Below are positions 1,126 through 16,063 of a DNA stretch of 64,000 nt, piece by piece. The stretch covers positions 290,097-354,096 of the forward strand of contig JAHJQF010000001.1 in assembly GCA_018819405.1 (NCBI GenBank), read 5' to 3'. The notes under the pieces are model-generated. The model was given only the letters and a program-made list of their open reading frames with translations. It did not search any database and had not been told where the DNA came from. Position numbers and translations under genes: made by a program. This DNA comes from Patescibacteria group bacterium. Lineage in GTDB: Bacteria; Patescibacteriota; Patescibacteriia; UBA1558; GWA2-36-10. Within the stretch, counting starts at the first letter, position 1. Each line of letters begins with the position of its first letter.

Positions 1126-1154
1126 CGCATACGCGGTGTTGGGTGATGTACGAC
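1126..1154. repeat. Site-B copy 1 (CGCGAACCGCATACGCGGTGTTGGGTGATGT)
   Basis: Reverse-complement of the Site-A 5' arm. Internal CCGC-ATAC-GCGG hairpin. Confidence 0.8.
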
Positions 1155-1168
1155 GAATTCCCAGAATT

Positions 1169-1570
1169 TTATTTATTAAAAGTTTGTTTTATTCTTTTTG
1201 CTATTTCTTCAGGATATAATAGAATATTATCTAAATTATCTAATTTTATCCATTCCAAATTATATTGGTTATTTGGATTATTTCTTCCAGTTTCAGGCCA
1301 ACCTAATTTAATTTTTCCTTCAAATGTTTTAGCTAAGAAATAATATCCGTAATGGTGCTCATCTTTATATTCCCAAAGTAATTTATCCAAAACTATGTCT
1401 AAATTAGTTTCTTCTTTTATTTCTCTAATAGCGGTTTCTTCAGATTTTTCGTTTTTTTCTATTGTTCCTCCAGGAAATGCATAATACTCGTTATCATTTT
1501 TAATTCTATGTATTAAAAGAATTTTTTCATCTTTGATTATAATTACTGCTGATCTTTTATGATATTGCAT
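1169..1570 (-). CDS. Nudix hydrolase
   Basis: Nudix box GGTIEKNEKSEETAIREIKEETNL (GX5EX7REUXEEXGU). Confidence 0.75.
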   Translation of the reverse strand: MQYHKRSAVIIIKDEKILLIHRIKNDNEYYAFPGGTIEKNEKSEETAIREIKEETNLDIVLDKLLWEYKDEHHYGYYFLAKTFEGKIKLGWPETGRNNPNNQYNLEWIKLDNLDNILLYPEEIAKRIKQTFNK

Positions 1571-1602
1571 AGTTTTAAAAAATTCTGGGAATGAGGAGTA
1601 TT

Positions 1603-1700
1603 TCGCCTAACAGACAAGCGTATGAGAAGTCACGAGTGACTGGAGGTGATAGAATCGCACGGAGTGCTATCACCGAAAGGAACGAGTGATTTGCGCGAAG
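1603..1700. repeat. Site-A copy 2
   Basis: CCTAACAGACAAGCGTATGAGAAGTC arm. Stem GGTGATAG (1645-1652) pairs with CTATCACC (1667-1674), loop AATCGCACGGAGTG. Box GATTTGCGCGAAG. Confidence 0.8.
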
Positions 1701-1713
1701 AGAAATAAAGTTT

Positions 1714-1753
1714 TTGCTTAATTATTGACTAATTACTATATAAATGATAGGGT
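1714..1753 (+). promoter_or_regulatory. putative promoter for ORF 1820-2146, with CTGGCTAGGCCAG palindrome at 1767-1781
   Basis: TTGCTT/TTGACT -35 candidates and a TATATA -10. Palindrome lies between promoter and RBS AAAGGAGGTG. Confidence 0.4.
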
Positions 1754-1819
1754 ATTTTATTAGTTCTGGCTAGGCCAGAGTAGTTCATTACTCTAAACCT
1801 CTGAAAGGAGGTGAAAAAT

Positions 1820-2146
1820 ATGTCTTCCAATTTGGTTGGTTTGAAACTCGATGGCTACACTGTCCAGAAGGTGTTCGAAGTCTTCAGGGTCGACGAAGAC
1901 GGCATGAAGGTCAAGTCAGTCGACTTCTTCATGGACGGTGGTGTAGCCACAGCTTGGACTCAAGGTCTGGCTGACCGCCACTTCCACAAGACCGTCGAAG
2001 TGCTCGTCATCAGCAACGGTGAAAGCCATTTCCTTTTCGGAGGAGAGGAAGTCAACATCCACGATGACACGAGTGCCCTTCTTCAGGTTCGACAGAAGGC
2101 TCTGTCCAAGCTGACTTCGGAAGAACGGGCTGTACTCGGCCTGTGA
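1820..2146 (+). CDS. hypothetical protein, high-GC, opposite strand to array
   Basis: ATG 1820 is 8 nt after AAAGGAGG. ~58% GC in a ~30% GC context. Own terminator at 2153-2191. Confidence 0.55.
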   Translation: MSSNLVGLKLDGYTVQKVFEVFRVDEDGMKVKSVDFFMDGGVATAWTQGLADRHFHKTVEVLVISNGESHFLFGGEEVNIHDDTSALLQVRQKALSKLTSEERAVLGL

Positions 2147-2152
2147 TCATTT

Positions 2153-2191
2153 GCCGCCTGGCCTGAAAACTGGGCGGCTCTTTTATTTTTT
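2153..2191 (+). terminator. rho-independent terminator
   Basis: GCCGCC-TGGCCTGAAAACTG-GGCGGC followed by a T-run. Confidence 0.65.
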
Positions 2192-2207
2192 AAAAAACTT
2201 TATTTCT

Positions 2208-2239
2208 CTTCGCCTCATACGCGGTGATAGATGATGACC
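2208..2239. repeat. Site-B copy 2 (variant CTTCGCCTCATACGCGGTGATAGATGATGACC)
   Basis: Shares the CATACGCGGTG core and the GATGAT/GATGT tail. Confidence 0.65.
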
Positions 2240-2251
2240 AATTCCATGGCG

Positions 2252-3004
2252 TTATAAATTATTAATTTTTTTATAGGTAGCTATACCCGTACAATGAAGT
2301 TGTTGTCCATCTAAGACATGGTCATACTTTATATTATTATTAGATATATATTCTATTAGCCAATTTTTGATGTCAGTATTTATAAATTTTAATAAATATT
2401 TAGTTTGGTTGTTTATGAAATTTATTATCTGTAGTGTCTCAACTTTTTTGCGACCTCTTTCATCAATATATGTTTTTTCTGGTCCATTACTATTTATCAT
2501 AGCAAATGACAATGGTTTCGTTCCAAATATGACTATTTGAGATTTGTAATGAATTATTTTTTCTCTTTGTTCTTTTAATTTGAAAATCCATTTTTTATTT
2601 TTGTCTAATATTTTTTTTAATGCAATGTCTATAGTAGGTTTTTTTTCTAACGATTTATATAAATCATGTATACTCATTTCTTGGTCTTGCGGATGAGCAG
2701 GGCCTGTGGGGGTTTTTAGATTTCTGGTATTTTTTGGCAATGTCTGCCATATTATATAAGCTATATCGTTTAGTAATATTCTTTGTCTTATTATAAAACT
2801 TTCTAGATCAGCTGCTATATTATAGTGGTTTGGTTCGTTTTTGTTAGTTTCAGAAATTATTCGATCGTAGTATAAAAAAAGTCTAGATAGTGACCAAAAA
2901 ATAGCATTTGTATTGAAATAATAATGTTTTTTGAAGTGTTGAAAGCCAAAATTGGTAAGCACATCAAAAATTGGCAATTCTAAATATTCATTTTTTCTTA
3001 TCAT
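2252..3004 (-). CDS. hypothetical protein (array cargo)
   Basis: 250-aa ORF with no recognisable motif. Confidence 0.5.
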   Translation of the reverse strand: MIRKNEYLELPIFDVLTNFGFQHFKKHYYFNTNAIFWSLSRLFLYYDRIISETNKNEPNHYNIAADLESFIIRQRILLNDIAYIIWQTLPKNTRNLKTPTGPAHPQDQEMSIHDLYKSLEKKPTIDIALKKILDKNKKWIFKLKEQREKIIHYKSQIVIFGTKPLSFAMINSNGPEKTYIDERGRKKVETLQIINFINNQTKYLLKFINTDIKNWLIEYISNNNIKYDHVLDGQQLHCTGIATYKKINNL

Positions 3005-3024
3005 ATATAATGGAATTGGTTTTC

Positions 3025-3120
3025 ATCTATCAGGCTAGTGTATGCGAAGTTCTGCTTGAATTTTATGCTAAAATAGCACGGAGTGCAAGCATAAAATGAA
3101 AAGTAGAATTTGGGTGGAGC
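3025..3120. repeat. Site-A copy 3
   Basis: Stem ATTTTATGCT pairs with AGCATAAAAT, loop AAAATAGCACGGAGTGCA. Box GAATTTGGGTGGAGC. Forms a ~195-bp composite with Site-B copy 3 that is duplicated at 14767-14962. Confidence 0.8.
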
Positions 3121-3186
3121 AGTGTTAGTTTAGTTTAAACTATATAAAAACAGATAAATATTACTTTACCTGTTCTTTGATATTGC

Positions 3187-3220
3187 TTCGCGAAACCGCA
3201 TACGCGGTGTTGGCTGATGT
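3187..3220. repeat. Site-B copy 3
   Basis: CGCGAAACCGCATACGCGGTGTTGGCTGATGT. Ends 2 nt before the stop of ORF 3222-4025. Confidence 0.8.
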
Positions 3221-3221
3221 T

Positions 3222-4025
3222 TTAATTAAATTTTGTCTTTAATTCTTCCAAAGTTTTTCGCATTAATTCATCTGCTTTTTTGCTTTTTTCTTGTATTTCT
3301 TCAATGGAGTTTGTTTTGTATAAATCTTCGATTTCCTGAACAACTTCTGGTGGCAAATCAACTGACGCATGTTTAAGACCTATGTTTGGCCACTGCGGAG
3401 AATAAAGAAGCCTCAATGCTTCAATAAGTTTGTCTAAAATTAGATCGTGATATATTTTGAGCGCATCAAGATAGTTTTCTCGTTTTAATTCTCGTTCTAG
3501 ACACATGTTACGAAGAGAAACTCGGGCTTCAATATTTTCGATTTGAGCTATAATATTTTTGCGTTCATTTTCTTCGCTTCCTGATTCAGTTTCTAAAATA
3601 CCTTTTTTGTCGAACAATGTGGTTTTACCCTGTGCTTTTAATTTCGTAGAGTCAGAGTATGTTTGCAGAGTAATATCGATAATTAAAAATTTTGATGTGC
3701 CCTGCACATGATAAAGCATTTTGGGCCAATCATATCCAGGTCGTGTATGTTCAAGTTTAAAATCAATATTCGACAATGCGGCTTCTATCGTTTGAATAAC
3801 GCTTTCTATATTTTCGTCTTCTATGACAAGACGTACATCGATATCAGAATATTCGTCCACGGTACCATGTACATCTGCTCCTTCAAGAAAAAAAGCAAAA
3901 ACAGATGAATTGCCTTCAAGAGCGCTATGAAGCTGATCAATAATTTCTTTTCTCTTCTCTATTGTATTTTCTGGTTTTTGTTCGTTTTCTTGCCCTATGT
4001 TTATAGGTAACTCGTTCTTATTCAT
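3222..4025 (-). CDS. nucleotidyltransferase-domain protein
   Basis: G-x(n)-DID motif (LEGADVHGTVDEYSDIDVRLV) typical of the Pol-beta-like NTase fold. Substrate unknown. Confidence 0.5.
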   Translation of the reverse strand: MNKNELPINIGQENEQKPENTIEKRKEIIDQLHSALEGNSSVFAFFLEGADVHGTVDEYSDIDVRLVIEDENIESVIQTIEAALSNIDFKLEHTRPGYDWPKMLYHVQGTSKFLIIDITLQTYSDSTKLKAQGKTTLFDKKGILETESGSEENERKNIIAQIENIEARVSLRNMCLERELKRENYLDALKIYHDLILDKLIEALRLLYSPQWPNIGLKHASVDLPPEVVQEIEDLYKTNSIEEIQEKSKKADELMRKTLEELKTKFN

Positions 4026-4045
4026 ATTTAAAATTTAATTAATAT

Positions 4046-4142
4046 TTCAGCTAACAGACGTGCGTATGCGAAGTCGTGACTGAGCGAATATGATAAAATT
4101 ATTTGAAATCATATTTGCGAAAGAATGATTTGGGTGAGCGAG
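4046..4142. repeat. Site-A copy 4
   Basis: AGCTAACAGACGTGCGTATGCGAAGTC arm. Stem AATATGAT pairs with ATCATATT. Box GATTTGGGTGAGCGAGCCC. Confidence 0.8.
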
Positions 4143-4151
4143 CCCTTTTTA

Positions 4152-4334
4152 TTATTTGTCTTTTTCTTCAGTAGGTGGCACATAAATAACATCTTTTTTA
4201 TTATTAGGATTTATGCCTTCGCTAATTAGGTAATCCTCGTGCTCTTTGTTAAGTTCAGAAACCTCTCTTGTAAAAATACGAAATCCGATATATGCCAGAG
4301 CAGGTACTATAGGTATAAGTAATTTCCAATCCAT
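4152..4334 (-). CDS. small membrane protein (60 aa)
   Basis: N-terminal TM helix. Flanked by Site-A and Site-B. Confidence 0.4.
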   Translation of the reverse strand: MDWKLLIPIVPALAYIGFRIFTREVSELNKEHEDYLISEGINPNNKKDVIYVPPTEEKDK

Positions 4335-4354
4335 ATTTTTTTGTTAATTATTTA

Positions 4355-4391
4355 GCTCGCGAACCGCATACGCGGTGATAGGTGATGTGAT
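4355..4391. repeat. Site-B copy 4
   Basis: AGCTCGCGAACCGCATACGCGGTGATAGGTGATGTGAT. Confidence 0.8.
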
Positions 4392-4409
4392 AAAAATTTT
4401 AATATTTTA

Positions 4410-5219
4410 TTACCAATAACCGTTTTGATTATTTTGCCTAGCATTCCTTTTTTTGAATTCTCTTTCTTCAATAGAATTATACAGCGCAGTTTTTAGGATT
4501 TTAATATCATTATTGTCTAGATAATTTAGAAAATCATCAATGGTCTTTTTTGATACAACATCAATTAGAAAATATTCTGGCTTGTCTTTATATGTGTATT
4601 CAACTTCAATTTCAAAATTATTTTTAATATCTTCATATTTATTACCATCACTAGCCGCTCGTTTAAATTTAGTGAAGTCAGGGACTAATATTAGTGGATA
4701 ATTTACAGTGTTGTAGTTTCCACCTCTTTTATTGGAGTAAAAGAGACTTGCATGCATGACTTCGTTTTTTGCTTTATCCAAGATCTTGTTATCATTTTCT
4801 GTACTAAATTCCTTTACGGCTTCATTATCTTTTAAATAATGGTGCATCTTATTTTCGTAATTTAGGTAAAAATCTTCTTGATTTTGAAGGATGGGATTAT
4901 TTTTTGCTAATTGTTTAGACTTTATTGGATCTTTATCTAAAAACCAAAATACTATATGTGGTTTAATATACTTACACTCTATTATTAATCTTATCGTTAA
5001 TGTCTCTGTAGAATTACTGAACATACCACCGCCAACTTGAATATTTTTTTCAGCAATTATATCAATTTCTCTAGGTTTATTTTCAACAGGATCATTATAG
5101 TGTGGGCTATTTGTCACTGTCCATTCTTTTTCTTCTAATAATTTTGAAATTGTTAAGTGAAAGTCATGTCCACTGTCTCCCATTATTTTTTCTATGATTT
5201 TACCAGTATCTTTTTCCAT
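4410..5219 (-). CDS. hypothetical protein, possible PD-(D/E)xK nuclease fold
   Basis: REIDIIAEK ... IIECKY resembles a D...ExK nuclease motif. Weak. Confidence 0.4.
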   Translation of the reverse strand: MEKDTGKIIEKIMGDSGHDFHLTISKLLEEKEWTVTNSPHYNDPVENKPREIDIIAEKNIQVGGGMFSNSTETLTIRLIIECKYIKPHIVFWFLDKDPIKSKQLAKNNPILQNQEDFYLNYENKMHHYLKDNEAVKEFSTENDNKILDKAKNEVMHASLFYSNKRGGNYNTVNYPLILVPDFTKFKRAASDGNKYEDIKNNFEIEVEYTYKDKPEYFLIDVVSKKTIDDFLNYLDNNDIKILKTALYNSIEEREFKKRNARQNNQNGYW

Positions 5220-5234
5220 AAAATTTTTATTATT

Positions 5235-5333
5235 TCATCTATCAGGACAGGGTATCCGAAGTTCCGAAGCGAATAGCGTGCTAAACTTTCTGCGAAGCAG
5301 AGCACGCAAATGAGCGAGGAATTTGGATGAGCG
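5235..5333. repeat. Site-A copy 5
   Basis: CATCTATCAGGACAGGGTATCCGAAGTTCC arm. Stem GCGTGCT pairs with AGCACGC. Box GAATTTGGATGAGCGGG. Confidence 0.75.
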
Positions 5334-5353
5334 GGTAAGAAAAATTATCCTTA

Positions 5354-5641
5354 TTAATTCCTAACAAATGAGCCTATTAAAGTAAGGATAGCCGTTATTG
5401 CATATAGAATAGAAAAGATTGTTCCGTGGGCATTTTTGATTTTCTTTTTTAAAATCAAATAAGGTATTATTTCAAGTATGAGTGTCATAAAAAGTATGCC
5501 AATAATGCCACCAAGTAATTGGAAGATATCCGAACCATTTATTGCCAGCGAAGCAATAACGGATATAATTAAGCCACTATATGCAAGGATTTTTACATAC
5601 ATAGGTGACTCTTTGAGGTTTAAATTTAGTCCCACTTTCAT
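5354..5641 (-). CDS. small membrane protein (95 aa)
   Basis: Three predicted TM helices. Confidence 0.45.
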   Translation of the reverse strand: MKVGLNLNLKESPMYVKILAYSGLIISVIASLAINGSDIFQLLGGIIGILFMTLILEIIPYLILKKKIKNAHGTIFSILYAITAILTLIGSFVRN

Positions 5642-5680
5642 AATTTTATATTAATTATTTTATTTGTAAAATTTTTCTTA

Positions 5681-5716
5681 CCTGCGAATCGGATACCCGA
5701 TGTTGGGCGATGTACA
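5681..5716. repeat. Site-B copy 5 (covarying variant TCGG-ATAC-CCGA)
   Basis: CCTGCGAATCGGATACCCGATGTTGGGCGATGTACAG. The 4-bp hairpin stem has switched from CCGC/GCGG to TCGG/CCGA while staying complementary. Confidence 0.75.
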
Positions 5717-5725
5717 GATTTTCCT

Positions 5726-6076
5726 TTAAATACCCCATTCTGATATTAGTTTTAAAATGGATGGCCATTGAGAAGTGAAGACCATAGCAATGATCACAAT
5801 TATCACACCTATAATGATTAAGCCGACGGGTCGTTCAAACCACGTTTTCATAGCATTCAAGTCCGACATAACCTTAGATGTTTTTATGTAGAGCGCAGGA
5901 TTGCTTCCAGAATTATTGATATATCCATTTGCTTTTAGAAACTCGTAGTAGATTTTTTGCGCATCACTACTACTTACATTTAAGCCATTTTGAAGGTCTT
6001 GAAAATTAAATCCAGCATCAGGTGTTTTTGAAACCCATTTAAGAATCTTTTTTATTGGAATATTTGCTATTTTCAT
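5726..6076 (-). CDS. hypothetical protein with C-terminal TM helix
   Basis: 116-aa ORF. Confidence 0.45.
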   Translation of the reverse strand: MKIANIPIKKILKWVSKTPDAGFNFQDLQNGLNVSSSDAQKIYYEFLKANGYINNSGSNPALYIKTSKVMSDLNAMKTWFERPVGLIIIGVIIVIIAMVFTSQWPSILKLISEWGI

Positions 6077-6102
6077 AAATTACACAATAAGGAAAATCTG
6101 TA

Positions 6103-6203
6103 TTTCGCCTAACAGACGTGGATTGCCGAAGTTGTGAGAGAGTGAAGTGGCTAAACTTTCGGCGGAGCCGAGCCACGAAACGAACGAGCAATTTGGATGA
6201 GCA
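6103..6203. repeat. Site-A copy 6
   Basis: CGCCTAACAGACGTGGATTGCCGAAGTTG arm. Stem GTGGCT pairs with AGCCAC, loop AAACTTTCGGCGGAGCCG. Box CAATTTGGATGAGC. Confidence 0.75.
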
Positions 6204-6205
6204 AA

Positions 6206-6694
6206 TTAATAAAAATATTTATTTAATACAAATAAACATTCAGGATGAAATTTTCCACCGTTGCTAATCATTTTTTTTATTTCCTCTTTTGTGAAAAATT
6301 GTACTTTTGTAACTTCATTAGGGTCAATATTAAATTCCCCATTATATTTTCCTTTAAAGAAAGTGCTAAAATGTTTGCGCCCATCATCAAGTTCAATGTA
6401 ATGTTTGCCCAATAATTCTAATTCAGTTTTGACACCAATTTCTTCAAAAAGCTCTCTTTTAGCACATCCAAAATAGTCTTCCCCAGAATCTACATGACCA
6501 CCGCCACTACAGTCCCAATAGGAAGGGTAGTTATAACTATTTTCCGAACGTAATTGGAGAAGAATTTCATCTTCATCATTTATAATCATAATATTAGACA
6601 CTCTCAAAATATCTGATTTTTTAGCAGACTTTCTATCGATTATTTTTAGTACTTTATCATTTTTGTCTACTACTTCTACTAGTTCTAATTTCAT
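6206..6694 (-). CDS. Nudix hydrolase
   Basis: Nudix box GGGHVDSGEDYFGCAKRELFEEIGV. Confidence 0.7.
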   Translation of the reverse strand: MKLELVEVVDKNDKVLKIIDRKSAKKSDILRVSNIMIINDEDEILLQLRSENSYNYPSYWDCSGGGHVDSGEDYFGCAKRELFEEIGVKTELELLGKHYIELDDGRKHFSTFFKGKYNGEFNIDPNEVTKVQFFTKEEIKKMISNGGKFHPECLFVLNKYFY

Positions 6695-6735
6695 ATTAAA
6701 TAATTAAGAGTTTTTTAATAAATATTTTTATAAAT

Positions 6736-6795
6736 TTGCGAATCGGCAATCCTGTGTTGGGCGACCCGATAGGGCGGAGCGAAGCGGAGAGTAAG
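6736..6795. repeat. Site-B copy 6 with appended G-rich tail
   Basis: TTGCGAATCGGCAATCCTGTGTTGGGCGAC followed by CCGATAGGGCGGAGCGAAGCGGAGAG. Confidence 0.65.
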
Positions 6796-6802
6796 TATTA
6801 AT

Positions 6803-7333
6803 TTATAATTTTATATTTTCTTTTATATCGCCAAGCGCTTTTTTGTGTTCTTCATATTTATTCTCCCAAAAATCAATATTGCTTAAAGCAAGTTGTTTAA
6901 TTGGCTCTTGTTTTATCCCGTCTTTCATAATGTTTTCTTTATTCCATTTAACTTGATTATTAAGATAATTTTCTGCAGTTAGGGAAAAATCGGAAAAAAA
7001 GTTTTTGAGTTTTGTAATATTTTCATGTTTGAGGAATTTATATACACTTCCGTCTTGTAACATGGAGTCTATTGAATAATTAAGAATTTTAGATAATTGA
7101 TAATATCCAAAATATCTAAATAGTATATCACCATTGACATGATTTCTATATACTTTAAATTCCTCAAGTATTTTTTCGACGTGTGTAATATTGTAGTCTA
7201 TTTCAAACCGGAAATTTTTTTTTCGATTTTTTTCACTAACTTTGTTTTTTATTACATCCAATAAGATATTTATTATACTGCCTGCAATTACACCGGCTAA
7301 TACCCCAAGGAACATATTCCAAAAAGTTTCCAT
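6803..7333 (-). CDS. hypothetical protein with N-terminal TM helix
   Basis: 176-aa ORF. Confidence 0.45.
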   Translation of the reverse strand: METFWNMFLGVLAGVIAGSIINILLDVIKNKVSEKNRKKNFRFEIDYNITHVEKILEEFKVYRNHVNGDILFRYFGYYQLSKILNYSIDSMLQDGSVYKFLKHENITKLKNFFSDFSLTAENYLNNQVKWNKENIMKDGIKQEPIKQLALSNIDFWENKYEEHKKALGDIKENIKL

Positions 7334-7367
7334 ATTTTTTTATTAATAAAATTTAAATTAATACTTA

Positions 7368-7405
7368 TTTCGCCTAACAGACAAGCGTATCTGATGTTTG
7401 TCCGC
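7368..7405. repeat. Site-A copy 7 (truncated; 5' arm only)
   Basis: CGCCTAACAGACAAGCGTATCTGATG present. No stem-loop or 3' box before the stop of ORF 7414-8331. Confidence 0.6.
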
Positions 7406-7413
7406 CACTGAAT

Positions 7414-9517: not shown

Positions 9518-9540
9518 TGGGACAGACTCAGTCCTGTCTC

Positions 9541-9571: not shown

Positions 9572-9585
9572 ATTTTTCTCTCCTA

Positions 9586-9616: not shown

Positions 9617-9663
9617 TTCCTTTTCTAGAATTTACTTTTTAAATATTTAAATTTCTTTTTTCA

Positions 9664-9710
9664 ATTTGGGCGAAGGGCAGAGGGGATTAAGGGGTGAATG
9701 CCCGAGCCCA
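9664..9710 (+). repeat. G-rich element copy 1 (GGGCGAAGGGCAGAGGGGATTAAGGGGTGAATGCCCGAGCCC)
   Basis: Four G-tracts with loops of 7 nt or fewer, a canonical G-quadruplex motif, on the plus strand. Starts with the AATTTGGGCGA box like the Site-A 3' end. Confidence 0.6.
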
Positions 9711-9716
9711 AAAAAG

Positions 9717-12290
9717 TTATCTATTTTCAGAAAAACGTATATCTCTTGCATGCAACATTGTTTTTAGGCTTTCAGTAAATTTTAAGGATTCTTTTAGTGC
9801 TTCCTTCTTTGTATCTCCTTTTGGAATTGGAATTAAGAAGTATTCATTCCAAGCGTCTGTTTTTAATTCAGGTTGACTGGCTGTCTGAGCTAAATAATAT
9901 CCTTGTTTTTTGCATAAATCGCTTCTTAACGAATACCATAACAGCATACTTTCTTCTAAATTTTTTGTTTTAAATACCCAAAAGCCAGATGTACAAATAA
10001 AATTTTCCATTTCTTTTGGTACCAGCATAACAGTTCCTCGTGAACTAATGTTTATCGCCATTAGAACATCATTTTCTTGAATTTTGTATTGTCCACGCGA
10101 TGGTAGGTTTTCAAAATTGTCAGTTAAGTAGTTTATTGGCAAGCCATAGTCAGTTACGTCACTAATTTCAATATAATGAAATTGTTTGTTTTTAAATTCA
10201 TTTTTTTGCAGGCCATTAATTTTAGCTCTTTTTTTTACGTCTATACCTTTTTTAATTTCAATTTTATCTTTGTCGGCGAGCTCTAAAATTTTATTCCAGG
10301 TATTTTTTAACTCAGGCGCATAGAAAAAAGCATCTAATCTATCAATTATTAATTCTTCTGGTGGAGTAATCCAAATTTGTTCCGGACATTCTAAGTTTTC
10401 ATTTTTGTTTTGATTTTCTTTAATTGTTGGTTTCAGTATCCCTGTTCGTTTCCATTCTAAATAAGATACTAAAATATCAGTTAAATTATTACGCTCTAAG
10501 GTGTCTCTGAGGGAGTTGTCGTGTCCAATATTATTACTTATAGACATAAAAATGTGACTTTGTCGTTCATCATCATTTTGTTTTTTCCGTAGATGTAAAA
10601 TTGACGTTTTTATATTTGCCTTTGCCTTGAAGAATGCGTTAAATGGTAAAGAATGAACTCCTAAAATTATAAATTTATCTACTATCCAGTTTCGAACATT
10701 TTGTTGATTTTTCCCGTTTAATACTGTGTCGTCAAGAACCAGTAATATTTCGCCACCTGATTTCAGTAATTTCCAATATCGATCCAAAAATAAAATATTT
10801 GATTTTGCACTTTTCATCCCGTCTGCAATATGGCGCTGGTCTAATATATCTGTTTCATCTTCATTATTTCTGTCATACACCATGCTAAACGGAGGGTTTG
10901 TTAGTACCAAGTCAAAGCTATTTTCCATGATTTTTGTTTGCATTGCTTCAATTTCAGATTTTCTTTCATCTTTCATGTCTTCTGCAATTTTTGGAAAATC
11001 GTCCAATCCATCGCCGTGAAATATGTGACTACCACCATCGCCGTGTAAATACATATTAATTCTAGCAATTCTTGCAACACGTTCATTTGCTTCAATGCCA
11101 AATAATTGTTCATTACAGATCTTGTTTTTAATTATTTCTTTTTCTGTATTACTAAAGCGTGTATCATCTCTCAATCCAGATAATAAATAAGCCATAACTT
11201 CAATGAGAAAACCAGCTGTTCCTGCACATGCATCCATAACTTTTGGCGGATTTTTAATATCCACATTACATAAGGCAATTCGGGTCATAAAGTCAACAAC
11301 TGGTCGGGGTGTAAAATATTGCCCCAATGCTCGTCCTCTTACGGCAGCGTTTAAGAACACTTCAAACATTCGTCCGTTAAGGTCTTCATCAATTGAGCTA
11401 AGATTAATTTTTTCAAATATTTTTATTAGATCTTGGCAGGTGGAGGCACTCAATTTAAAAGTTTCATTTTCTTCAAAAATTCTACGTTTTTTGTCTCTAT
11501 GTATTGCAGCTTCTAAATCGTCTCGTAATTTATTAAAAAGAATGTCTCGCACAGGATGTTTTGATGTTGATTTTTGAGCATCTAACCACTCGCTGGTAAG
11601 TGGAATTTTATATGTTGGGATGTCTTCATTATTTTGTCCTCTTTTTTTATCCTCATTAATCTTAATGAATATAAATTTACAAAATTCAAAAAAAGCATCA
11701 GTAGGGCTAAGTTTTTCCCTCTTCCAAATTAAATCATGCGTTTGCTGAAAGATTTTATTCAATTCGTCAGGCGAAACGATTTCAAATTTTAATCCATCAC
11801 CGTGCACTACTTCATCAGCAGTTTTATACTTGATATAACTTCTTAGATTGGTATAGGCTGGTGAACCACTGGCAAAATCTGATAACTGTAATGTTACGAT
11901 TGGTGTACTGCTGTCCCATTTGAATAACGAAGTTATAAAACCATTACTGATTAATAACCACTTGACCTTTTCTTTGTCTAATTTATCTCGGTTATAACTA
12001 AGAGCATAGCTTGCAGCTTGTCCCCATGCTTCGTTTATGGATTTATTTGGATCCTTAGCCTCTACTACTACTTTTGCATTTCCATTGCTACCAAGTAATA
12101 AAAAATCTATTTCAATTTTTATTTTTTTGGATCCATCATTAGCCATCAAATTAAGGAGTCTTTTTTTGGGGATAACAGATTGATCTGTATAGCCGAGATC
12201 ATTAAATAATTTTGCCAAGAGCCTAGTTTCTACCTCGGCTTCGGTTTTTAAGTCTTTTAAATTAAGTTGAAATAGAGTACTTTGGCTCAT
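9717..12290 (-). CDS. Type IIG-like restriction-modification enzyme / N6-adenine DNA methyltransferase with HsdR-N-type N-terminal domain
   Basis: Motif I DACAGTAGFL, motif IV LTNPPF, an HsdM-like helical domain, an N-terminal Type-I-R N-terminal-like domain and a long C-terminal extension. 857 aa. Confidence 0.7.
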   Translation of the reverse strand: MSQSTLFQLNLKDLKTEAEVETRLLAKLFNDLGYTDQSVIPKKRLLNLMANDGSKKIKIEIDFLLLGSNGNAKVVVEAKDPNKSINEAWGQAASYALSYNRDKLDKEKVKWLLISNGFITSLFKWDSSTPIVTLQLSDFASGSPAYTNLRSYIKYKTADEVVHGDGLKFEIVSPDELNKIFQQTHDLIWKREKLSPTDAFFEFCKFIFIKINEDKKRGQNNEDIPTYKIPLTSEWLDAQKSTSKHPVRDILFNKLRDDLEAAIHRDKKRRIFEENETFKLSASTCQDLIKIFEKINLSSIDEDLNGRMFEVFLNAAVRGRALGQYFTPRPVVDFMTRIALCNVDIKNPPKVMDACAGTAGFLIEVMAYLLSGLRDDTRFSNTEKEIIKNKICNEQLFGIEANERVARIARINMYLHGDGGSHIFHGDGLDDFPKIAEDMKDERKSEIEAMQTKIMENSFDLVLTNPPFSMVYDRNNEDETDILDQRHIADGMKSAKSNILFLDRYWKLLKSGGEILLVLDDTVLNGKNQQNVRNWIVDKFIILGVHSLPFNAFFKAKANIKTSILHLRKKQNDDERQSHIFMSISNNIGHDNSLRDTLERNNLTDILVSYLEWKRTGILKPTIKENQNKNENLECPEQIWITPPEELIIDRLDAFFYAPELKNTWNKILELADKDKIEIKKGIDVKKRAKINGLQKNEFKNKQFHYIEISDVTDYGLPINYLTDNFENLPSRGQYKIQENDVLMAINISSRGTVMLVPKEMENFICTSGFWVFKTKNLEESMLLWYSLRSDLCKKQGYYLAQTASQPELKTDAWNEYFLIPIPKGDTKKEALKESLKFTESLKTMLHARDIRFSENR

Positions 12291-12379
12291 ATTGGTTTAA
12301 TTTAGTTTTTATACTATTTATAATACAAGTATAATTCATTTAAAATAAAAACACAATTCTGAGATATAAATAAATCGTT

Positions 12380-12435
12380 TCCGAAGCGTAGCGGAGGAAA
12401 CATCTGCTCCTGCCGACAGGCAGGTTCCCCTCCTA
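12380..12435. repeat. GC-rich nested hairpin (GGAGG...CCTGCCGACAGGCAGG...CCTCC)
   Basis: Perfect inner hairpin CCTGCC-GACA-GGCAGG nested in a GGAGG/CCTCC outer stem. Begins with the CGAAGCGTAGCGG segment shared with 8367-8386. Confidence 0.5.
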
Positions 12436-12514
12436 AAAAAAGAAAAAGAAATTTGTAATTTTTAAAAATAATTGTTTGTTAAATGCCGAAAAAGAAAAGG
12501 AATATTTCAGCTAA

Positions 12515-12603
12515 CAGACGTGCGTATCTGAAGTTCCGAAGCGAGTGGCGTGGTAAAATTGCGCGGAGCGCACCACGCAAACGAGCGAGGAATTTGGGTG
12601 AGT
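12515..12603. repeat. Site-A copy 9
   Basis: AGCTAACAGACGTGCGTATCTGAAGTTCC arm. Stem GCGTGGT pairs with ACCACGC, loop AAAATTGCGCGGAGCGC. Box GAATTTGGGTGAGTAAG. Confidence 0.8.
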
Positions 12604-12606
12604 AAG

Positions 12607-13065
12607 TTAAATAAAATCTTTATACTGCTCTTCAATAGGAGGATTGGAAAAATAAGCCAATACACTATTACCAGATTCCATTAATTCTATCATTTCAAAA
12701 CCGTCTCTAGGTATTAATTTAAAATTATTTTTGCCCAAATTTTCTTTTTTAAAATTTTCGTAATTTTTCACTGTAAAATCTGCATCGCCCCTTTCTTTTT
12801 TATTAGGATCAAATTCTCTAATTTTTAATACTCTAATAGTTCTTCCTATAGGCTCATTTAATATGAATATAGGGCCACTGTATGTGTCTTTCAATTTTTC
12901 ACCAAATTTTTTTACTTCTTCAATCAATTCCTTATATTCTTCTTCAGTTTGGGCAAAAATACAAGCCCAAGTCGCTATAGCACCATGTTCTTTGGTATAT
13001 TTATCTTTAAGAGCAATAGCTCTCATTAGTATTTCTTGAACGATAATTTTTTTTAAATCTACCAT
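12607..13065 (-). CDS. hypothetical protein
   Basis: 152-aa ORF. Confidence 0.45.
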   Translation of the reverse strand: MVDLKKIIVQEILMRAIALKDKYTKEHGAIATWACIFAQTEEEYKELIEEVKKFGEKLKDTYSGPIFILNEPIGRTIRVLKIREFDPNKKERGDADFTVKNYENFKKENLGKNNFKLIPRDGFEMIELMESGNSVLAYFSNPPIEEQYKDFI

Positions 13066-13087
13066 AGTTTTATAAAGATTTTATTTA

Positions 13088-13124
13088 ACTTACGAACCAG
13101 ATACGCGGTGATAGGTGATGTACA
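13088..13124. repeat. Site-B copy 9
   Basis: ACTTACGAACCAGATACGCGGTGATAGGTGATGTAC. Confidence 0.75.
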
Positions 13125-13182
13125 TTTTTTCTTAAACTTTAAAGAGTTTTATTTCTTAAAAGTAGAATTTGATTTTTATCAA

Positions 13183-13240
13183 TTTTGGCGAGGGCGCAGA
13201 GGGGGTTAGGGGGTGAATGCGCCCGAGCCAAAGGCGCTTT
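13183..13240 (+). repeat. G-rich element copy 2 (GGCGAGGGCGCAGAGGGGGTTAGGGGGTGAATGCGCCCGAGCC)
   Basis: Homologous to 9664-9710. Preceded by an AAGTAGAATTTGA box remnant. Confidence 0.6.
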
Positions 13241-13255
13241 GTCTAATTTATAATT

Positions 13256-14077
13256 TTATTTTGCTTCTACACTTTTTATTATTTGTTTAGTTAACTCATT
13301 AAAGATTACAAAAAACATTTGAGAGTCCTGTGGTTCTAAAAAGATTTTTAATCTTAATTGTTTTTCGGGGTGTATTAGATTTCTATATTCCATTATAGTA
13401 GTGCCTATGTCTTTTGCTGGTTTTCTCACCCAGCCCATAGAGAATGATACATCAATAAAATTACTTAGTGTCCACTCCGATAAATTACGAGGTTTTTTAG
13501 TTTTTGGGTCTATTGGGGTTGTTTTTTGTTTAAAAATAGTACTTTTATCTGTTAATTTATTTATGCGCGCAAGAAAAAATGCTTCCAGTAATCCACCCAT
13601 CATTACTGTGGCAGCAAGAGGTGCTACATTGATGCAGTTTTGGATTTCATCGAAACGACTATATATGATTTGTTGCATGTAGTCATCTTGTACAAGATTT
13701 TCTAATGAAGTAATATTTTTATTTTCTACTTTTGGTTTTTGGTTTGTTATTGTTTCGGATTGCAATTTTATTAGTTTACCTCTTAATCCCTTAATAAGGG
13801 ATAGGTATTTATTTTTACTAGTAGCTGAATGCGACCATTCATTTATTAGTAGATAGTCATCATTAATTTTAGTATATAGTTCAGAATCTACGCATAAAGG
13901 AGAAAAAATATTTTTATATTTTTCGAACCACGCTAAAGAAATTGTTCTTATAAACTCACGTGTAGATTTTGAACGTATTTGATCTCCGCTTTCTTTTCGC
14001 AATATTTTTTTAAGACGTTCAGCTTCATCTAGTAAGGTAATTAAAATATTTGAAATATTGCTGTCGTTAATTGCCAT
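13256..14077 (-). CDS. hypothetical protein
   Basis: 273-aa ORF. Confidence 0.45.
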   Translation of the reverse strand: MAINDSNISNILITLLDEAERLKKILRKESGDQIRSKSTREFIRTISLAWFEKYKNIFSPLCVDSELYTKINDDYLLINEWSHSATSKNKYLSLIKGLRGKLIKLQSETITNQKPKVENKNITSLENLVQDDYMQQIIYSRFDEIQNCINVAPLAATVMMGGLLEAFFLARINKLTDKSTIFKQKTTPIDPKTKKPRNLSEWTLSNFIDVSFSMGWVRKPAKDIGTTIMEYRNLIHPEKQLRLKIFLEPQDSQMFFVIFNELTKQIIKSVEAK

Positions 14078-14088
14078 AGCTAGAGTGA

Positions 14089-14643
14089 TTATTTTTTCTT
14101 TTTAGTATTTCTTACAATTTTTTTTCTTTTCTTTGATGTAGTTGCAGTACTTTCTGTATTTGGAAGAACCATTGCAACAAGATTTTCTCCAACACTGTTT
14201 AATCTGTATGCACCTCTTGAAATATTGTCTAAATACCCAGCTTTAGTTGCATTTACTAAAGTTTGATCTGGACGTTTTATCCTAGTTCTCCCCACAAGTC
14301 TTGTGGCCTCTATTAAATCATTCATTGATATGGTGTCCTTTTTTTCACTTGCTTCAAATTGATAATAGTAGGCAACAGCGGCAGCAAAATGATTATCGGA
14401 AGATGGTTTTTTTCCATCAATAAAAGTTTTTATATCTCTAGATGTTGTATGTTGAGTCGATGCATTTTGAGTTATGTTATTAAGGATATCAGGCTTTATC
14501 TCTTGTGTAATTCCGGGTATATTAATATTTAATTTTTCGCATGCCCATCGCATGGTTTGTAGTTGTTCGTCTTCTGGAAGTGTTTGTATTAAGTTGACGA
14601 TTTCACGCAATACGTCATAGGAATCTTTTTTTTGATCACTCAT
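14089..14643 (-). CDS. hypothetical protein with lysine-rich C-terminal tail
   Basis: 184 aa ending KKRKKIVRNTKKKK. Co-modular with 13256-14077 (11-nt gap). Confidence 0.45.
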   Translation of the reverse strand: MSDQKKDSYDVLREIVNLIQTLPEDEQLQTMRWACEKLNINIPGITQEIKPDILNNITQNASTQHTTSRDIKTFIDGKKPSSDNHFAAAVAYYYQFEASEKKDTISMNDLIEATRLVGRTRIKRPDQTLVNATKAGYLDNISRGAYRLNSVGENLVAMVLPNTESTATTSKKRKKIVRNTKKKK

Positions 14644-14766
14644 ATTGTTTAGTTGTTAGTTAATATTATATTTATTTATTTCAACCCCCTAACTAAAATA
14701 GATAAAAATCAAATTTGTATAATTTAAATTTTAGCTTATCTTAGCCAAAAAGGAAAAATGTATGTC

Positions 14767-14868
14767 ATCTATCAGACGTGCGTATGCGAAGTTCTACTTG
14801 AATTTTATGCTAAAATAGCACGGAGTGCAAGCATAAAATGAAAAGTAGAATTTGGGTGGAGCTGTTTT
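14767..14868. repeat. Site-A copy 10 (duplicate of copy 3)
   Basis: Identical stem-loop ATTTTATGCT-AAAATAGCACGGAGTGCA-AGCATAAAAT. Confidence 0.8.
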
Positions 14869-14929
14869 AGTTTAGTCTAAACTATATAAAAACAGATAAA
14901 TTTTACTTTACCTGTTCTTAAATAATGCT

Positions 14930-14962
14930 TCGCGAAACCGTATACGTAGTGTTGTCTGATGT
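14930..14962. repeat. Site-B copy 10 (degenerate: CGCGAAACCGTATACGTAGTGTTGTCTGATGTCG)
   Basis: Position-equivalent to Site-B copy 3 inside the duplicated composite. Confidence 0.65.
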
Positions 14963-15015
14963 CGAATTTTCTTAGACATTTACTATTATTTAGGGGAATT
15001 TTTGGGTTTTTAAGG

Positions 15016-15044
15016 TTGACAAGATATAGTGTTTATGATATATT
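15016..15044 (+). promoter_or_regulatory. sigma70-like promoter (TTGACA-17-TATATT)
   Basis: Paralogous copy of the promoter at 18-46. Confidence 0.6.
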
Positions 15045-15113
15045 ATTTTGTTAACTAAAATCGGTCAATTCAGGCCATTGGTTGTGTTCCTCAAACTTGG
15101 AAGGAGTAATTTC

Positions 15114-15548
15114 ATGACTACCACCGTTGTTTCCCAGGGTAGCTTGTTCTGGAACAAGCTCGGCAAGTGGCAGATGCTGGCAGTTCTGTTAACTTTGGTG
15201 GTTTTCTTCGTTGCCCTAGGAATGGGTAATAAGGAGACTGCCGGCACCATCTCTGCTCTCACGCTTGCTGCCGTCACTCTGACTGTTCTCACTGTCGCCG
15301 CCCTCGTTCTCGCTGTCCCTTCCGCCGTTCCCTTCGTATTCCTTTTCGCTGCTGCTACTGCCAGCATCGCCTTCGCTTTCGTTAAAGGTGTTGCCATTAT
15401 TCCCGGCATCGCCTTCGCCGTCGCTGAAGGAATTGCTGTCACCCTTGCCGTCGCTGAGGTGAAGAAGTACGGCATCAGGAAGAGGATTGTTTGGTTTTCC
15501 TTCGCGGCGGAGTTTGCGTGTATCGTCCTTCCCATGTCACTGGCTTAG
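15114..15548 (+). CDS. small polytopic membrane protein, high-GC, paralog B
   Basis: N-terminus MTTTVVSQGSLFWNKLGKWQ matches paralog A's MSTAVVSQARLFWRKLGWWQ. C-terminus KKYGIRKRIVWFSFAAEF matches RQYGIKKRVVWLSSTVEF. Alanine- and valine-rich core. Confidence 0.6.
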   Translation: MTTTVVSQGSLFWNKLGKWQMLAVLLTLVVFFVALGMGNKETAGTISALTLAAVTLTVLTVAALVLAVPSAVPFVFLFAAATASIAFAFVKGVAIIPGIAFAVAEGIAVTLAVAEVKKYGIRKRIVWFSFAAEFACIVLPMSLA

Positions 15549-15563
15549 GCCAGCACCCTCCAC

Positions 15564-15597
15564 GAGACCCGGGTTAGAATAGGGTCTCTTTTTTTCC
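15564..15597 (+). terminator. rho-independent terminator
   Basis: GAGACCC-GGGTTAGAATAG-GGTCTC followed by T9. Confidence 0.7.
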
Positions 15598-15664
15598 AAA
15601 AAATTCCCAAACAAAAAACAATCTCTAAAAGATTGTTTTATTATATGAATAGAAAATTCGATTT

Positions 15665-15703
15665 CATACAACAGACCGCCATATGCGAAGTTGCGCAGGC
15701 CGC
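15665..15703. repeat. Site-A copy 11 (truncated variant CATACAACAGACCGCCATATGCGAAGTTGCGCAGGCCGCC)
   Basis: Arm present, no 3' box. Confidence 0.55.
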
Positions 15704-15722
15704 CTACCTTTAACTTAGGCAC

Positions 15723-15968
15723 TTAGTTAATTATAATAGCAATGAATTGTAAACAAAATCCTATACTATATAGAGTGAAGGCTAATAATCCAACCATTTT
15801 ATCTTTTAGATGTTTAATTTGTGTATAATTTCCTTTATCGTCCATTTTTATAATATAATCATCATTAACATTTCTAGTAATGTTAAGATAGGAAATTAAC
15901 AATATTAAAGAAGCTCCAGTATTTATTATTAAGCCAATTAGGTTTAGTATATTTGAAGAATTAGTCAT
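15723..15968 (-). CDS. small membrane protein (81 aa)
   Basis: Two TM helices. Confidence 0.45.
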   Translation of the reverse strand: MTNSSNILNLIGLIINTGASLILLISYLNITRNVNDDYIIKMDDKGNYTQIKHLKDKMVGLLAFTLYSIGFCLQFIAIIIN

Positions 15969-16026
15969 ATTTTATTAGTTAGTTAAAGAATTAGGCCAAG
16001 CAATTTTGGTGAAGCGCCTGACAAGG

Positions 16027-16063
16027 CGCTGAACCGCATATGGGGTGTTAGCTGATGTAAATA
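16027..16063. repeat. Site-B copy 11
   Basis: GCGCTGAACCGCATATGGGGTGTTAGCTGATGTAAAT. Confidence 0.7.

Follow-up and report, generated by a model that had tools for sequence, protein, structure and literature searches.

The chromosome of a Patescibacteria group bacterium (GenBank assembly GCA_018819405.1) carries, on a 1.04-Mb contig (JAHJQF010000001.1), an array of two alternating and inversely oriented sequence elements, here called A and B, which bracket small genes and end at the gene of a tyrosine recombinase. We analysed a 64-kb stretch of this contig ("the window", to which all positions refer) and propose that the array is an integron-like, single-strand, structure-specific cassette platform of a Candidate Phyla Radiation (CPR) chromosome, with a recombinase devoid of the I2 domain of integron integrases and with sites that carry genes in their loops. 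The A 5′ arm would be one strand, and B its complement, of a single structure-specific site that is functionally equivalent to an integron attC. We put the probability of this reading at about 0.65; it is grounded in the geometry, covariation, strand bias and folding of the sites, in the recombinase with its attI-like site, and in conservation in relatives. An earlier note made from the letters of this DNA alone (the original prediction) had recognised B as an inverted copy of the A arm and had likened the array to the pdif modules of Acinetobacter plasmids.

Geometry, covariation and folding of the half-sites

Direct reading together with fuzzy and position-weight-matrix scans finds 11 A and 11 B sites, all on one strand and in strict A, B alternation between 651 and 16058, and none elsewhere in the 64-kb window. 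The CTAAC of the A 5′ arms starts at 655, 1607, 3027, 4051, 5239, 6109, 7374, 9104, 12511, 14769 and 15668; the B sites start at 1126, 2214, 3197, 4365, 5690, 6744, 8386, 9592, 13098, 14939 and 16035. The array had been assigned to the interval 1126–16063 but extends further on both sides, with A1 at 651, an attI-like site at 16777, and at least three more A/B pairs on the source contig upstream of window position 1.

Each A is a composite of a 5′ arm, a hairpin (P2) and a 3′ box, as had been suspected. The arm consists of an R box (9 nt, ending in A(A/T)C), a 6-nt spacer, an L box (9 nt) and AAGT, while B consists of an L′ box (9 nt), a 3-nt spacer, an R′ box (9 nt) and, usually, TGT; box order in B is the reverse of that in A, and B is inverted and complementary to the A arm. 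The spacers are constant, at 6 nt in A and 3 nt in B, over more than 75 sites in nine arrays. These boxes, which pair over 9–10 bp, replace the 11-nt arms around GCGTATGCG that had been proposed; GCGTATGCG itself occurs seven times in the window (0.11 expected). By our own reading of the sequences, the core is AAC/GTT in 8 of the 11 window sites and ATC/GAT in the other 3, and the strict attC 7-mer consensus RYYYAAC/GTTRRRY fits only 4 of the 11. The sites are as follows.

651–743 (+): A1, with R box 651–659 (TCATACAAC), spacer 660–665, L box 666–674 (GCGTATGCG), P2, and 3′ box ATTTGGGTGA at 734–743
1126–1149 (+): B1, with L′ box 1126–1134 (CGCATACGC), spacer GGT, R′ box 1138–1146 (GTTGGGTGA), TGT
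1603–1698 (+): A2, with R box TCGCCTAAC and L box GCGTATGAG
2214–2237 (+): B2, with L′ box CTCATACGC and R′ box GATAGATGA
3023–3117 (+): A3, with R box TCATCTATC and L box GTGTATGCG
3197–3220 (+): B3, closing the gene-less unit A3–B3
4047–4137 (+): A4, with R box TCAGCTAAC and L box GCGTATGCG
4365–4388 (+): B4, with R′ box GATAGGTGA
5235–5330 (+): A5, with R box TCATCTATC and L box GGGTATCCG
5690–5713 (+): B5, with L′ box CGGATACCC, the compensatory partner of A5
6105–6200 (+): A6, with L box GGATTGCCG
6744–6764 (+): B6, with L′ box CGGCAATCC, spacer TGT and R′ box GTTGGGCGA
7370–7405 (+): A7, 5′ part, with R box, spacer, L box GCGTATCTG and P2 5′ strand ATGTTTGTCCGC; a gene splits P2
8355–8409 (+): A7, 3′ part, with P2 3′ strand GCGGACAAATAT and box GGGCGA, joined directly to B7 (8386–8409)
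9100–9212 (+): A8, with R box GCGTCTAAC, the perfect partner of the B7 R′ box GTTAGACGC
9592–9615 (+): B8
12507–12601 (+): A9
13098–13121 (+): B9
14765–14859 (+): A10
14939–14962 (+): B10, closing the gene-less unit A10–B10
15664–15706 (+): A11, 5′ part, with R box TCATACAAC, L box CCATATGCG and P2 5′ strand; a gene splits P2
15992–16058 (+): A11, 3′ part, with P2 3′ strand, box TTTTGGTGA, compact P3 hairpin at 16013–16030, GAAC, and B11 at 16035–16058

Inversely oriented half-sites bound every gene or gene pair of the array, and the two units that had been taken for empty modules (A3–B3, 3023–3220; A10–B10, 14765–14962) are indeed gene-less and 92% identical to each other. The inversion itself could in principle be an artefact of the near-palindrome CCGCATACGCGG, with A and B lying in the same orientation, an objection the original prediction had raised against itself. 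The commonest L box is indeed near-palindromic, and GCGTATGCG and CGCATACGC share 6 of 8 positions at a one-base shift. Alignment with strand assignment does not bear this out. The non-palindromic L types (GGATTGCCG/CGGCAATCC, GGGTATCCG/CGGATACCC, GCGTATGAG/CTCATACGC and CCATATGCG/CGCATATGG) and all R boxes (e.g., TCGCCTAAC/GTTGGGCGA), which are not palindromic, match only as reverse complements; box order is reversed, and the permuted and slid controls given below fall far short of the observed pairing. We consider such an artefact hardly credible.

The key new finding is covariation, which was assessed over nine arrays (this genome and the relatives' loci L001, L004, L005, L007, L009, L011, L046 and L145). 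Within the window, the L box of A(n) forms 8.73 of 9 Watson–Crick pairs with B(n), against 6.49 with non-cognate partners, while the R′ box of B(n) forms 8.27 of 9 with the R box of the following site, A(n+1), against 6.48 with non-cognate partners and 6.36 with A(n); none of 100,000 permutations reached the observed L or R pairing. Over the nine arrays, the cognate L helix A(n)/B(n) is 98.9% paired, with compensatory double changes at 7 of its 9 pairs, whereas the non-cognate R helix within the same units is 77.8% paired. In the comparison of B(n) with A(n+1) the situation is reversed, with the cognate R helix 96.2% paired (6 of 9 pairs compensatory) and the non-cognate L helix 77.1%. Pairing drops to 20–49% when partners are slid by one to three columns. 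As the R and L boxes of one site pair with different partners, the pattern is the footprint expected of a DNA that is cut and rejoined between the boxes. Covariation with the cassette partner extends to the position that precedes the C (GTT/AAC versus GAT/ATC), which would place the crossover 3′ of that position, as in the AA|C of integrons; the one-site register shift fits the prediction of a crossover at AA|C, as for integron cassettes.

The 3′ box of A takes no part in this covariation. That it reappears in B, as had been claimed, holds for the likeness of TTGGGTGA at consensus level only; by eye, the box covaries neither with the R box of its own site nor with B, in which only the R′ box covaries. 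A alone, with its R box pairing to the 3′ box as a complete attC, was rejected for poor complementarity. The box, ATTTGGGTGA, lies single-stranded at the junction between P2 and the next hairpin, P3 (e.g., 734–743, 4128–4137 and 12592–12601), is kept down to relatives of 46% identity, and resembles the consensus R′ box of B without having a covariation partner; a role as decoy or as additional binding site is conceivable.

The cognate helices also tell which strand folds. Their non-Watson–Crick positions are almost all G·T on the + strand (G·T to A·C ratios of 24:3 for R, 11:1 for L and 51:2 for P4, the stem that closes the genes between B(n) and A(n+1)), which marks the + strand as the one that would fold. 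P2 shows an invariant G·T at its base, in AAGT/ATTT, and compensatory covariation at 8 of 14 pairs. The + strand of four compact units folds 2.8–3.9 kcal/mol better than the other strand (z −4.5 to −8.7), and a C-GNA-G mini-hairpin sits at the P2 apex of 17 of 26 elements, against 2% of shuffles, in + sense only. Hairpins of the d(GCGAAGC) type are exceptionally stable in DNA. These features point, indirectly, to single-stranded + strand DNA as the folding molecule. Relative to the attI-like end and to the majority of cassette genes, this is the bottom strand, and folding would accordingly be bottom-strand folding. In the P2 loops of most A sites (e.g., 697–712 and 12553–12571), a TAAAAT/TATAAT motif precedes the mini-hairpin (GCGGAGC, GCGAAGC or GCGTAGC); this hexamer looks like a −10 box.

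Bracketing of each gene by a stem, the likeness of compact P3 hairpins to bidirectional terminators (A-run, stem, T-run) and the TAAAAT/TATAAT motif of the P2 loops might suggest that the inverted repeats act on RNA or transcription, e.g., as terminators, insulators, RNase III-type processing stems or elements akin to repetitive extragenic palindromes. We regard this as very improbable. Most genes lie on the − strand, so that the G·T bias, the + strand stability and the GNA mini-hairpins, being antisense to them, argue against a role in mRNA, whose stems would carry A·C instead; Rfam, at permissive as well as gathering thresholds, detects no RNA family on the array. The register-shifted R/L covariation and the break in conservation at AAC of the attI-like site beside the recombinase gene are recombination footprints, and the sites are confined to one array beside that gene. 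The same strand-specific features speak against purely duplex sites.

Recombinase, attI-like site and relatives

The array ends on its right in the following features.

16777–16862 (+): attI-like site, a variable R box (TCAGCTAAC, 16777–16785) followed by AGTGTGTTTGTGCACCTATTGACA..., without an L box
16809–16837 (−): promoter-like site TTTACA-17-TACGAT, reading into the array
16863–17729 (+): XerA/IntI-like tyrosine recombinase, 288 aa, without the IntI additional domain

The recombinase gene lies directly right of the array and diverges from the cassettes; the 64-kb window contains no second tyrosine recombinase. Its product passes the NCBIfam model NF040815, "site-specific tyrosine recombinase/integron integrase" (228.6 bits; cut-off 220), and its C-terminus, ...GIKSPLD, resembles that of IntI. 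Among structures, Pyrococcus XerA (4a8e) is the best match and Vibrio IntI4/VchIntIA (2a3v) about equal. The alignment to 2a3v splits, residues 181–208 of the query (28 aa) standing in place of residues 170–238 (69 aa), which contain the IntI-specific domain. A Xer-related subgroup, "Cand", is treated as a Xer substitute by Smyshlyaev 2021 (PMC8138268).

The R box of the attI-like site pairs 9/9 with the R′ box of B11 (GTTAGCTGA). The sequence that follows, AGTGTGTTTGTGCACCTATTGACA..., is kept in 12 genomes, and conservation breaks exactly after A(A/T)C. The promoter-like site within it is a weak candidate for a cassette promoter. On its other side, the recombinase gene is abutted by a gene for a 984-aa ribonucleotide reductase of class I/II type with an ATP-cone (17786–20740, − strand), a synteny that is not conserved in relatives.

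Relatives of the integrase were collected from a scan of one genome per species. In metagenome-assembled genomes (MAGs) of Patescibacteria its counterparts are 64–84% identical, and all of those with upstream DNA carry A and B on the same strand, usually only 108–190 nt apart. There, the + strand gives a compact fold of R stem, unpaired spacer, L stem and a three-way junction made of P2, single-stranded ATTTGGGTGA and a short P3. With A and B contiguous in one hairpin, they are to be seen as the two halves of one attC-like site. The pairing rule between the R boxes of B(n) and A(n+1) holds in the relatives as well, including the rare types GTTCTGCGA/TCGCAGAAC. At 46% identity, a Parcubacteria integrase (L013) still has four ~170-nt repeats built in the same way, together with an attI-like junction, and no upstream repeats occur next to the 322–323-aa integrases of 29–47% identity from Brevinematales (L014), Bacteroidales (L021) and L025. 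As found, the system does not extend beyond CPR relatives with 46% identity or more. A metagenome scan for CATACGCGGTGTTG returned 120 stretches, nearly all of them chance single matches, with real A/B sites only on the short contigs L046 and L145; a collection of phage proteins held no close integrase.

Some of the relatives' loci deviate in detail. Gene-less units between B and the next A or attI-like site, which follows within at most ~95 nt of B, occur in L007 (2508–2612 and 3801–3905) and L006 (21–140); in these, a perfect 12-bp hairpin, GATAAGTGGAAA-GAGCGAAGCGAA-TTTCCACTTATC, pairs the R box with an adjacent copy and not with B. In the Komeilibacteria locus L011 (1079–8215), two site types alternate several times, one with L box GGATTGCCG and a gene inside, the other compact with L box CCATATGCG, which hints at larger repeating units or recent duplications. 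The MAGs of L001, L002, L003, L017 and L019, whose integrases are 78–81% identical to that of the window, are labelled "uncultured Gammaproteobacteria"; L001 carries the same A/B array as the Patescibacteria MAGs, and the labels are probably binning or taxonomy errors.

According to the pdif analogy, A and B would be the same double-stranded Xer-type site in opposite orientations, moved, for example, by cassette exchange between site pairs. The architecture agrees well: strictly alternating inverted sites bound every gene, the arms adjoining a module travel along with it, empty modules exist, the A arm has partial dyad symmetry (TTCGC...GCGAA), and the enzyme is Xer-like. One duplex site is, however, a different matter. 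With its spacer fixed at 6 nt, A differs as a duplex from B, whose spacer is fixed at 3 nt, and this excludes a single inverted site; the two boxes of one site covary with different partners; and a central region of 3 bp is too short for a tyrosine recombinase, the crossover regions of these enzymes being 6–8 bp. The G·T strand bias and the DNA-type GNA mini-hairpins would be meaningless for a duplex, and in the Patescibacteria relatives A and B usually adjoin as halves of a single hairpin. Finally, the array has a single dedicated recombinase with an attI-like site and not the host XerC/XerD pair, and the one site sequence queried against a plasmid DNA collection had no match. Duplex modules of this kind are, thus, an improbable explanation.

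Genes in the loops, the proposed cassette and its breakpoints

Nine of the 11 units in the window enclose a gene within the site, A3–B3 and A10–B10 being the gene-less ones. Genes in the P3 loop (Y1, Y2, Y4, Y5, Y6, Y8 and Y9) are closed by stems of ~6–24 bp, most of them gene-specific, and two genes (Z7 and Z11) lie in the P2 loop. X genes lie between B(n) and A(n+1) and are closed by P4 (typically ~10–18 bp, often gene-specific), which comes after the R helix, past a T·T mismatch and a conserved G·T. P4 is present in most arrays but not in all: neither X7 of the window nor the gene-less units of L007 have a clear one. With the exception of X7, every gene-bearing loop is bracketed by a P3 or P4 stem. 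The genes are listed below.

118–531 (+): X1, reversed GC-rich gene for a small membrane protein, equipped with a promoter and terminator of its own
749–1102 (−): Y1, 117 aa, in the P3 loop between A1 and B1
1169–1570 (−): X2, NUDIX hydrolase
1820–2146 (+): Y2, 108 aa, GC-rich; an 18-bp stem, AAGAGAAATAAAGTTTTT/AAAAAACTTTATTTCTCTT, closes its P3 loop
2252–3004 (−): X3, 250 aa
3222–4025 (−): X4, 267 aa, weak nucleotidyltransferase match
4152–4334 (−): Y4, 60 aa
4410–5219 (−): X5, 269 aa
5354–5641 (−): Y5, 95 aa, membrane protein
5726–6076 (−): X6, 116 aa
6206–6694 (−): Y6, NUDIX hydrolase of 162 aa, inside the A6–B6 site
6803–7333 (−): X7, 176 aa
7414–8331 (−): Z7, 305 aa, DUF5655, in the loop of the A7 P2
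8399–9071 (−): X8, two overlapping genes, 141 and 93 aa
9326–9517 (+): Y8, 63 aa, GC-rich, in reverse orientation
9717–12290 (−): X9, 857-aa N6 DNA methylase/Eco57I-like restriction-modification protein
12607–13065 (−): Y9, 152 aa, in a P3 loop closed by a stem of at least 19 bp
13256–14643 (−): X10, two genes, 273 aa and 184 aa, the latter with a weak AbiEi match
15115–15548 (+): X11, paralogue of X1, whose R boxes and P4 stem it shares (~80–83% DNA identity over aligned stretches)
15723–15968 (−): Z11, 81 aa, in the loop of the A11 P2
16099–16710 (−): X12, 203 aa, in the cassette adjoining the attI-like site

According to the proposed reading, A (R, 6 nt, L) would pair with B (L′, 3 nt, R′) in the single-stranded + strand, giving two duplex boxes of 9–10 bp around an asymmetric unpaired spacer, and the structure would be closed by the three-way junction of P2, single-stranded ATTTGGGTGA and P3. 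By analogy with IntI/attC and with Xer/CTX-phi, a recombinase dimer would bind the R and L boxes, cut the A strand at A(A/T)|C and exchange it with the attI-like site or a second folded site, leaving a junction for replication to resolve. The R box of each A would belong to the neighbouring cassette, for which reason R pairs with the previous and L with the next B. A and B would alternate because every site has two halves, and these would be far apart in this genome because genes sit in the P3 (Y) or P2 (Z) loops. In an excised cassette, the R box of A(n+1) would become joined to the spacer and L box of A(n), both boxes pairing perfectly with B(n), which would explain both covariation registers. 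Such a cassette, when single-stranded, would take the form of a dumbbell with a rod of 40–50 bp (P4-R-L-P3) and cargo in both lobes, and it would be the P3 and P4 clamps that let a site with kilobase loops fold at all. From the attI-like end leftwards, the predicted cassettes are 15672–16784, 14773–15671, 12515–14772, 9108–12514, 7378–9107, 6113–7377, 5243–6112, 4055–5242, 3031–4054, 1611–3030 and 659–1610.

Comparison of modules within and between genomes shows that a half-site arm moves together with the module that it adjoins, an R arm with an X gene and an L arm with a Y unit, which is the pdif-like property of the array. Different genomes have whole A..B units in common beside unrelated X genes; in L011, an 88%-identical gene-bearing pair of A..B units lies between unrelated X genes, and L001 and L007 have the same Y gene with different neighbours. 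A given site type can be present in both a loaded and an empty version. One P3 base, GCGGACTAAAT/ATTTAGTCCGC, surrounds no fewer than four unrelated genes; together with homology breaks at the boundary between the A 3′ box and P3, this makes it seem that cargo is exchanged within a conserved hairpin scaffold. Conservation of the sites themselves precludes assigning the homology breakpoints to single nucleotides.

Several of these observations would be accommodated by a variant of the folded site in which exchange has two breakpoints, the A strand being cut at R|spacer and the B strand at L′|spacer in a complete reaction of the Xer/Cre type. X units (with R arms) and Y units (with L arms) would then be independent modules, two hairpins on the same single strand would trade loops by a full two-strand exchange, with no need of circular intermediates or of resolution by replication, and an "empty" hairpin would turn into a "loaded" one. 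Of the alternatives, this comes nearest to the idea of the original prediction. It would account for the five-member X family (X1 and X11 of the window, L046, L009 and L001), which keeps GGT-R′-P4...P4-R next to a B-side flank that is unrelated from L′ outwards, for X1 and L046, which share the A-side but not the B-side unit, for the A..B units shared beside unrelated X genes, for the Y gene of L001 and L007, and for the loaded and empty sites. Moreover, with a Xer-like, I2-less enzyme and no extrahelical bases, the features that in integrons are held to recognise the folded site and to block second-strand exchange are missing (PMC7790495). However, the homology ends can be placed only within conserved sites, and X could become separated from the interior of its site by concerted evolution of the sites within a genome, as known from Vibrio repeats, or by recombination at short homologies, for which the X copies, only ~80% identical, leave time. 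The attI-like site has an A-type (R) junction only, and a loop swap is without known precedent. We regard two breakpoints as unlikely on balance, though the most plausible of the alternatives.

Against single-strand cassette recombination with one crossover at A stand, in the first place, the X-family breakpoints: homology begins at L′|GGT of B, to the left of which four or five unrelated versions of the L′ box and of the whole site interior are found, so that B behaves as a second breakpoint, at L′|spacer, that such a crossover does not predict; many homology blocks end, in addition, at the A 3′ box/P3 boundary. In the second place, the enzyme fails the IntI model TIGR02249 (203.8 bits in two stretches; cut-off 265) and lacks the IntI-specific additional domain, the I2 helix around patch III. 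This domain is held necessary for attC recombination, as stated in PMC7790495 and in the passage of PMC9668308 that cites Messier & Roy 2001. Likewise, the folded boxes have no extrahelical bases, the L helix keeping a fixed 9-bp register without a bulge, apart from one L013 copy with a bulged G. Loops of 300–1000 nt inside a folded site should fold poorly, and we know of no precedent for them. Exact-protein look-ups with the integrase and three cargo proteins gave the same gene order only, with no excised circle, empty-site allele or rearranged array. All mechanistic steps—binding, cleavage position, single-strand exchange and replicative resolution—are, moreover, drawn by analogy from IntI/attC and Xer/CTX-phi.

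The cargo, of a kind typical for chromosomal integrons, consists mostly of small proteins without an assigned function, with NUDIX hydrolases in both an X and a Y position, and almost nothing of it is shared between genomes. Judging by recognised motifs in translations read by eye, the cargo of the relatives presumably includes Fic, SET, GrpB and nucleotidyltransferase proteins. Four cargo genes on the + strand (118–531, 1820–2146, 9326–9517 and 15115–15548) run opposite to the remaining ones and lie in stretches with a GC content of 0.40–0.41, against ~0.27–0.34 in the rest of the array. At least two of them, encoding membrane proteins, have their own TTGACA/TATACT-type promoter and a terminator hairpin; the products of 118–531 and 15115–15548 are small hydrophobic proteins and paralogues of each other, and additional copies occur in L046, L009 and L001. 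Such genes bring to mind the reversed cassettes of chromosomal integrons that drive their own expression and often encode toxin systems.

Two further elements lie close to P4. A conserved GC-rich element of ~55 nt, TTTGGGCGAAGGGCAGAGGGGATTAAGGGGTGAATGCCCGAGCCCAAA, is found at 9655–9715 and 13185–13245, just inside P4 on the B side of X9 and X10 and downstream of the − strand genes. An insert, CCCGATAGGGCGGAGCGAAGCGGAGAGTAAG (6765–6795), directly follows the R′ box of B6 on its 3′ side and displaces P4; a near-identical string comes after the fourth repeat of the distant Parcubacteria locus L013 (~4040–4075). Elsewhere in the window, GC rises to ~50% at 45000–49000 and 56000–57000, the remainder having 26–43%, and these stretches may hold foreign or highly expressed genes. 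In its search of the window for RNA genes, Rfam gives only two tRNAs (41640–41711 and 41809–41880) and no rRNA.

Relation to known recombination systems

Among known systems, sedentary chromosomal integrons are those to which the array, in the way it would work, comes closest. Both have the recombinase gene at the array end, divergent from the cassettes and next to an attI-like junction; R and L boxes around an unpaired central spacer, with a core that is AAC/GTT in most of the window sites; bottom-strand folding with structure conserved over sequence; a footprint that would fit a crossover at AA|C, the first cassette bases complementing the cassette's own R″ box; and mostly promoterless small genes without assigned function, of which a few are reversed with their own promoters and almost none are shared between genomes. 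The differences are, however, substantial. Two defining features of integrons, the IntI additional domain (I2) and the extrahelical bases, are absent here: the boxes are perfect duplexes of 9–10 bp, and asymmetry resides in the 6/3-nt spacer. A conserved three-way junction of P2, ATTTGGGTGA and P3 forms the terminal structure, genes are carried within the site in P3 or P2 loops, a gene-specific P4 prolongs the R helix, and there are hints of a second breakpoint at B.

The pdif modules of Acinetobacter plasmids, reportedly described by Blackwell & Hall and in later work, are likewise bounded by inversely oriented, alternating sites, with an arm that travels with the module, with empty or short modules and with a movement mechanism that is also unexplained. 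The pdif sites are 28-bp duplexes (XerC-6 bp-XerD), identical in both orientations, located on plasmids and served by the host XerC/XerD. In the array described here, by contrast, the orientations differ by 3 nt in the spacer and covary as paired partners with strand bias, and one dedicated recombinase with an attI-like site is found on a chromosome.

The enzymology proposed here would resemble that at attP(+) of CTX-phi and of integrative mobile elements exploiting Xer (IMEX), where an I2-less Xer enzyme performs a single strand exchange on a forked hairpin that is resolved by replication (PMC7790495). As is proposed for A and B, the half-sites there are inverted, lie on one single strand and form, by folding, a recombinase site whose centre is unpaired. 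CTX-phi, however, integrates as a one-off event at dif by means of the host XerC/XerD and has no array, attI-like platform, loop cargo or dedicated recombinase; conversely, phage genes and a dif target are missing here. Shufflons (Rci/sfx) share with the array inverted asymmetric sites that bound segments beside a tyrosine recombinase gene. Their segments invert and, thereby, switch protein C-termini, whereas the segments here are complete unrelated genes in fixed orientation, the sites pair as hairpin halves, and no inversion variants were seen.

Full-text literature searches found no description of integron-like arrays in CPR/Patescibacteria or of integron systems without I2. At the level of sequence, the complete signature expected of cassette recombination by a single-strand, structure-specific route is present here without I2 and without extrahelical bases, and it recurs in several CPR lineages. 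In integrons, attC sites are held to be recombined as folded single strands, which became possible when a Xer-like ancestor acquired I2, the domain that reads the extrahelical bases and blocks second strand exchange (PMC4792948, PMC7790495); the system described here would be either a surviving pre-I2 stage, that is, a living relative of the pre-I2 integron ancestor, or an independent invention. Surveys of the IntegronFinder type require an I2 profile, and since finders demand this profile together with a compact attC, such platforms are probably invisible in current surveys.

Integrons may, thus, be under-counted in the large CPR radiation, in which mechanisms of gene flux are poorly known. 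With a small and well-defined pair of enzyme and site, the purpose of I2 becomes directly testable. Genes that lie in hairpin loops with their own stems, sometimes on a shared stem base, are a rare structural clue to the long-standing question of how cassettes are assembled. Loop swapping, in which both strands of the folded R/L site would be exchanged, is the less likely course of events; if true, it would be a new mode of site-specific gene shuffling and a candidate mechanism for the unexplained movement of pdif-type modules.

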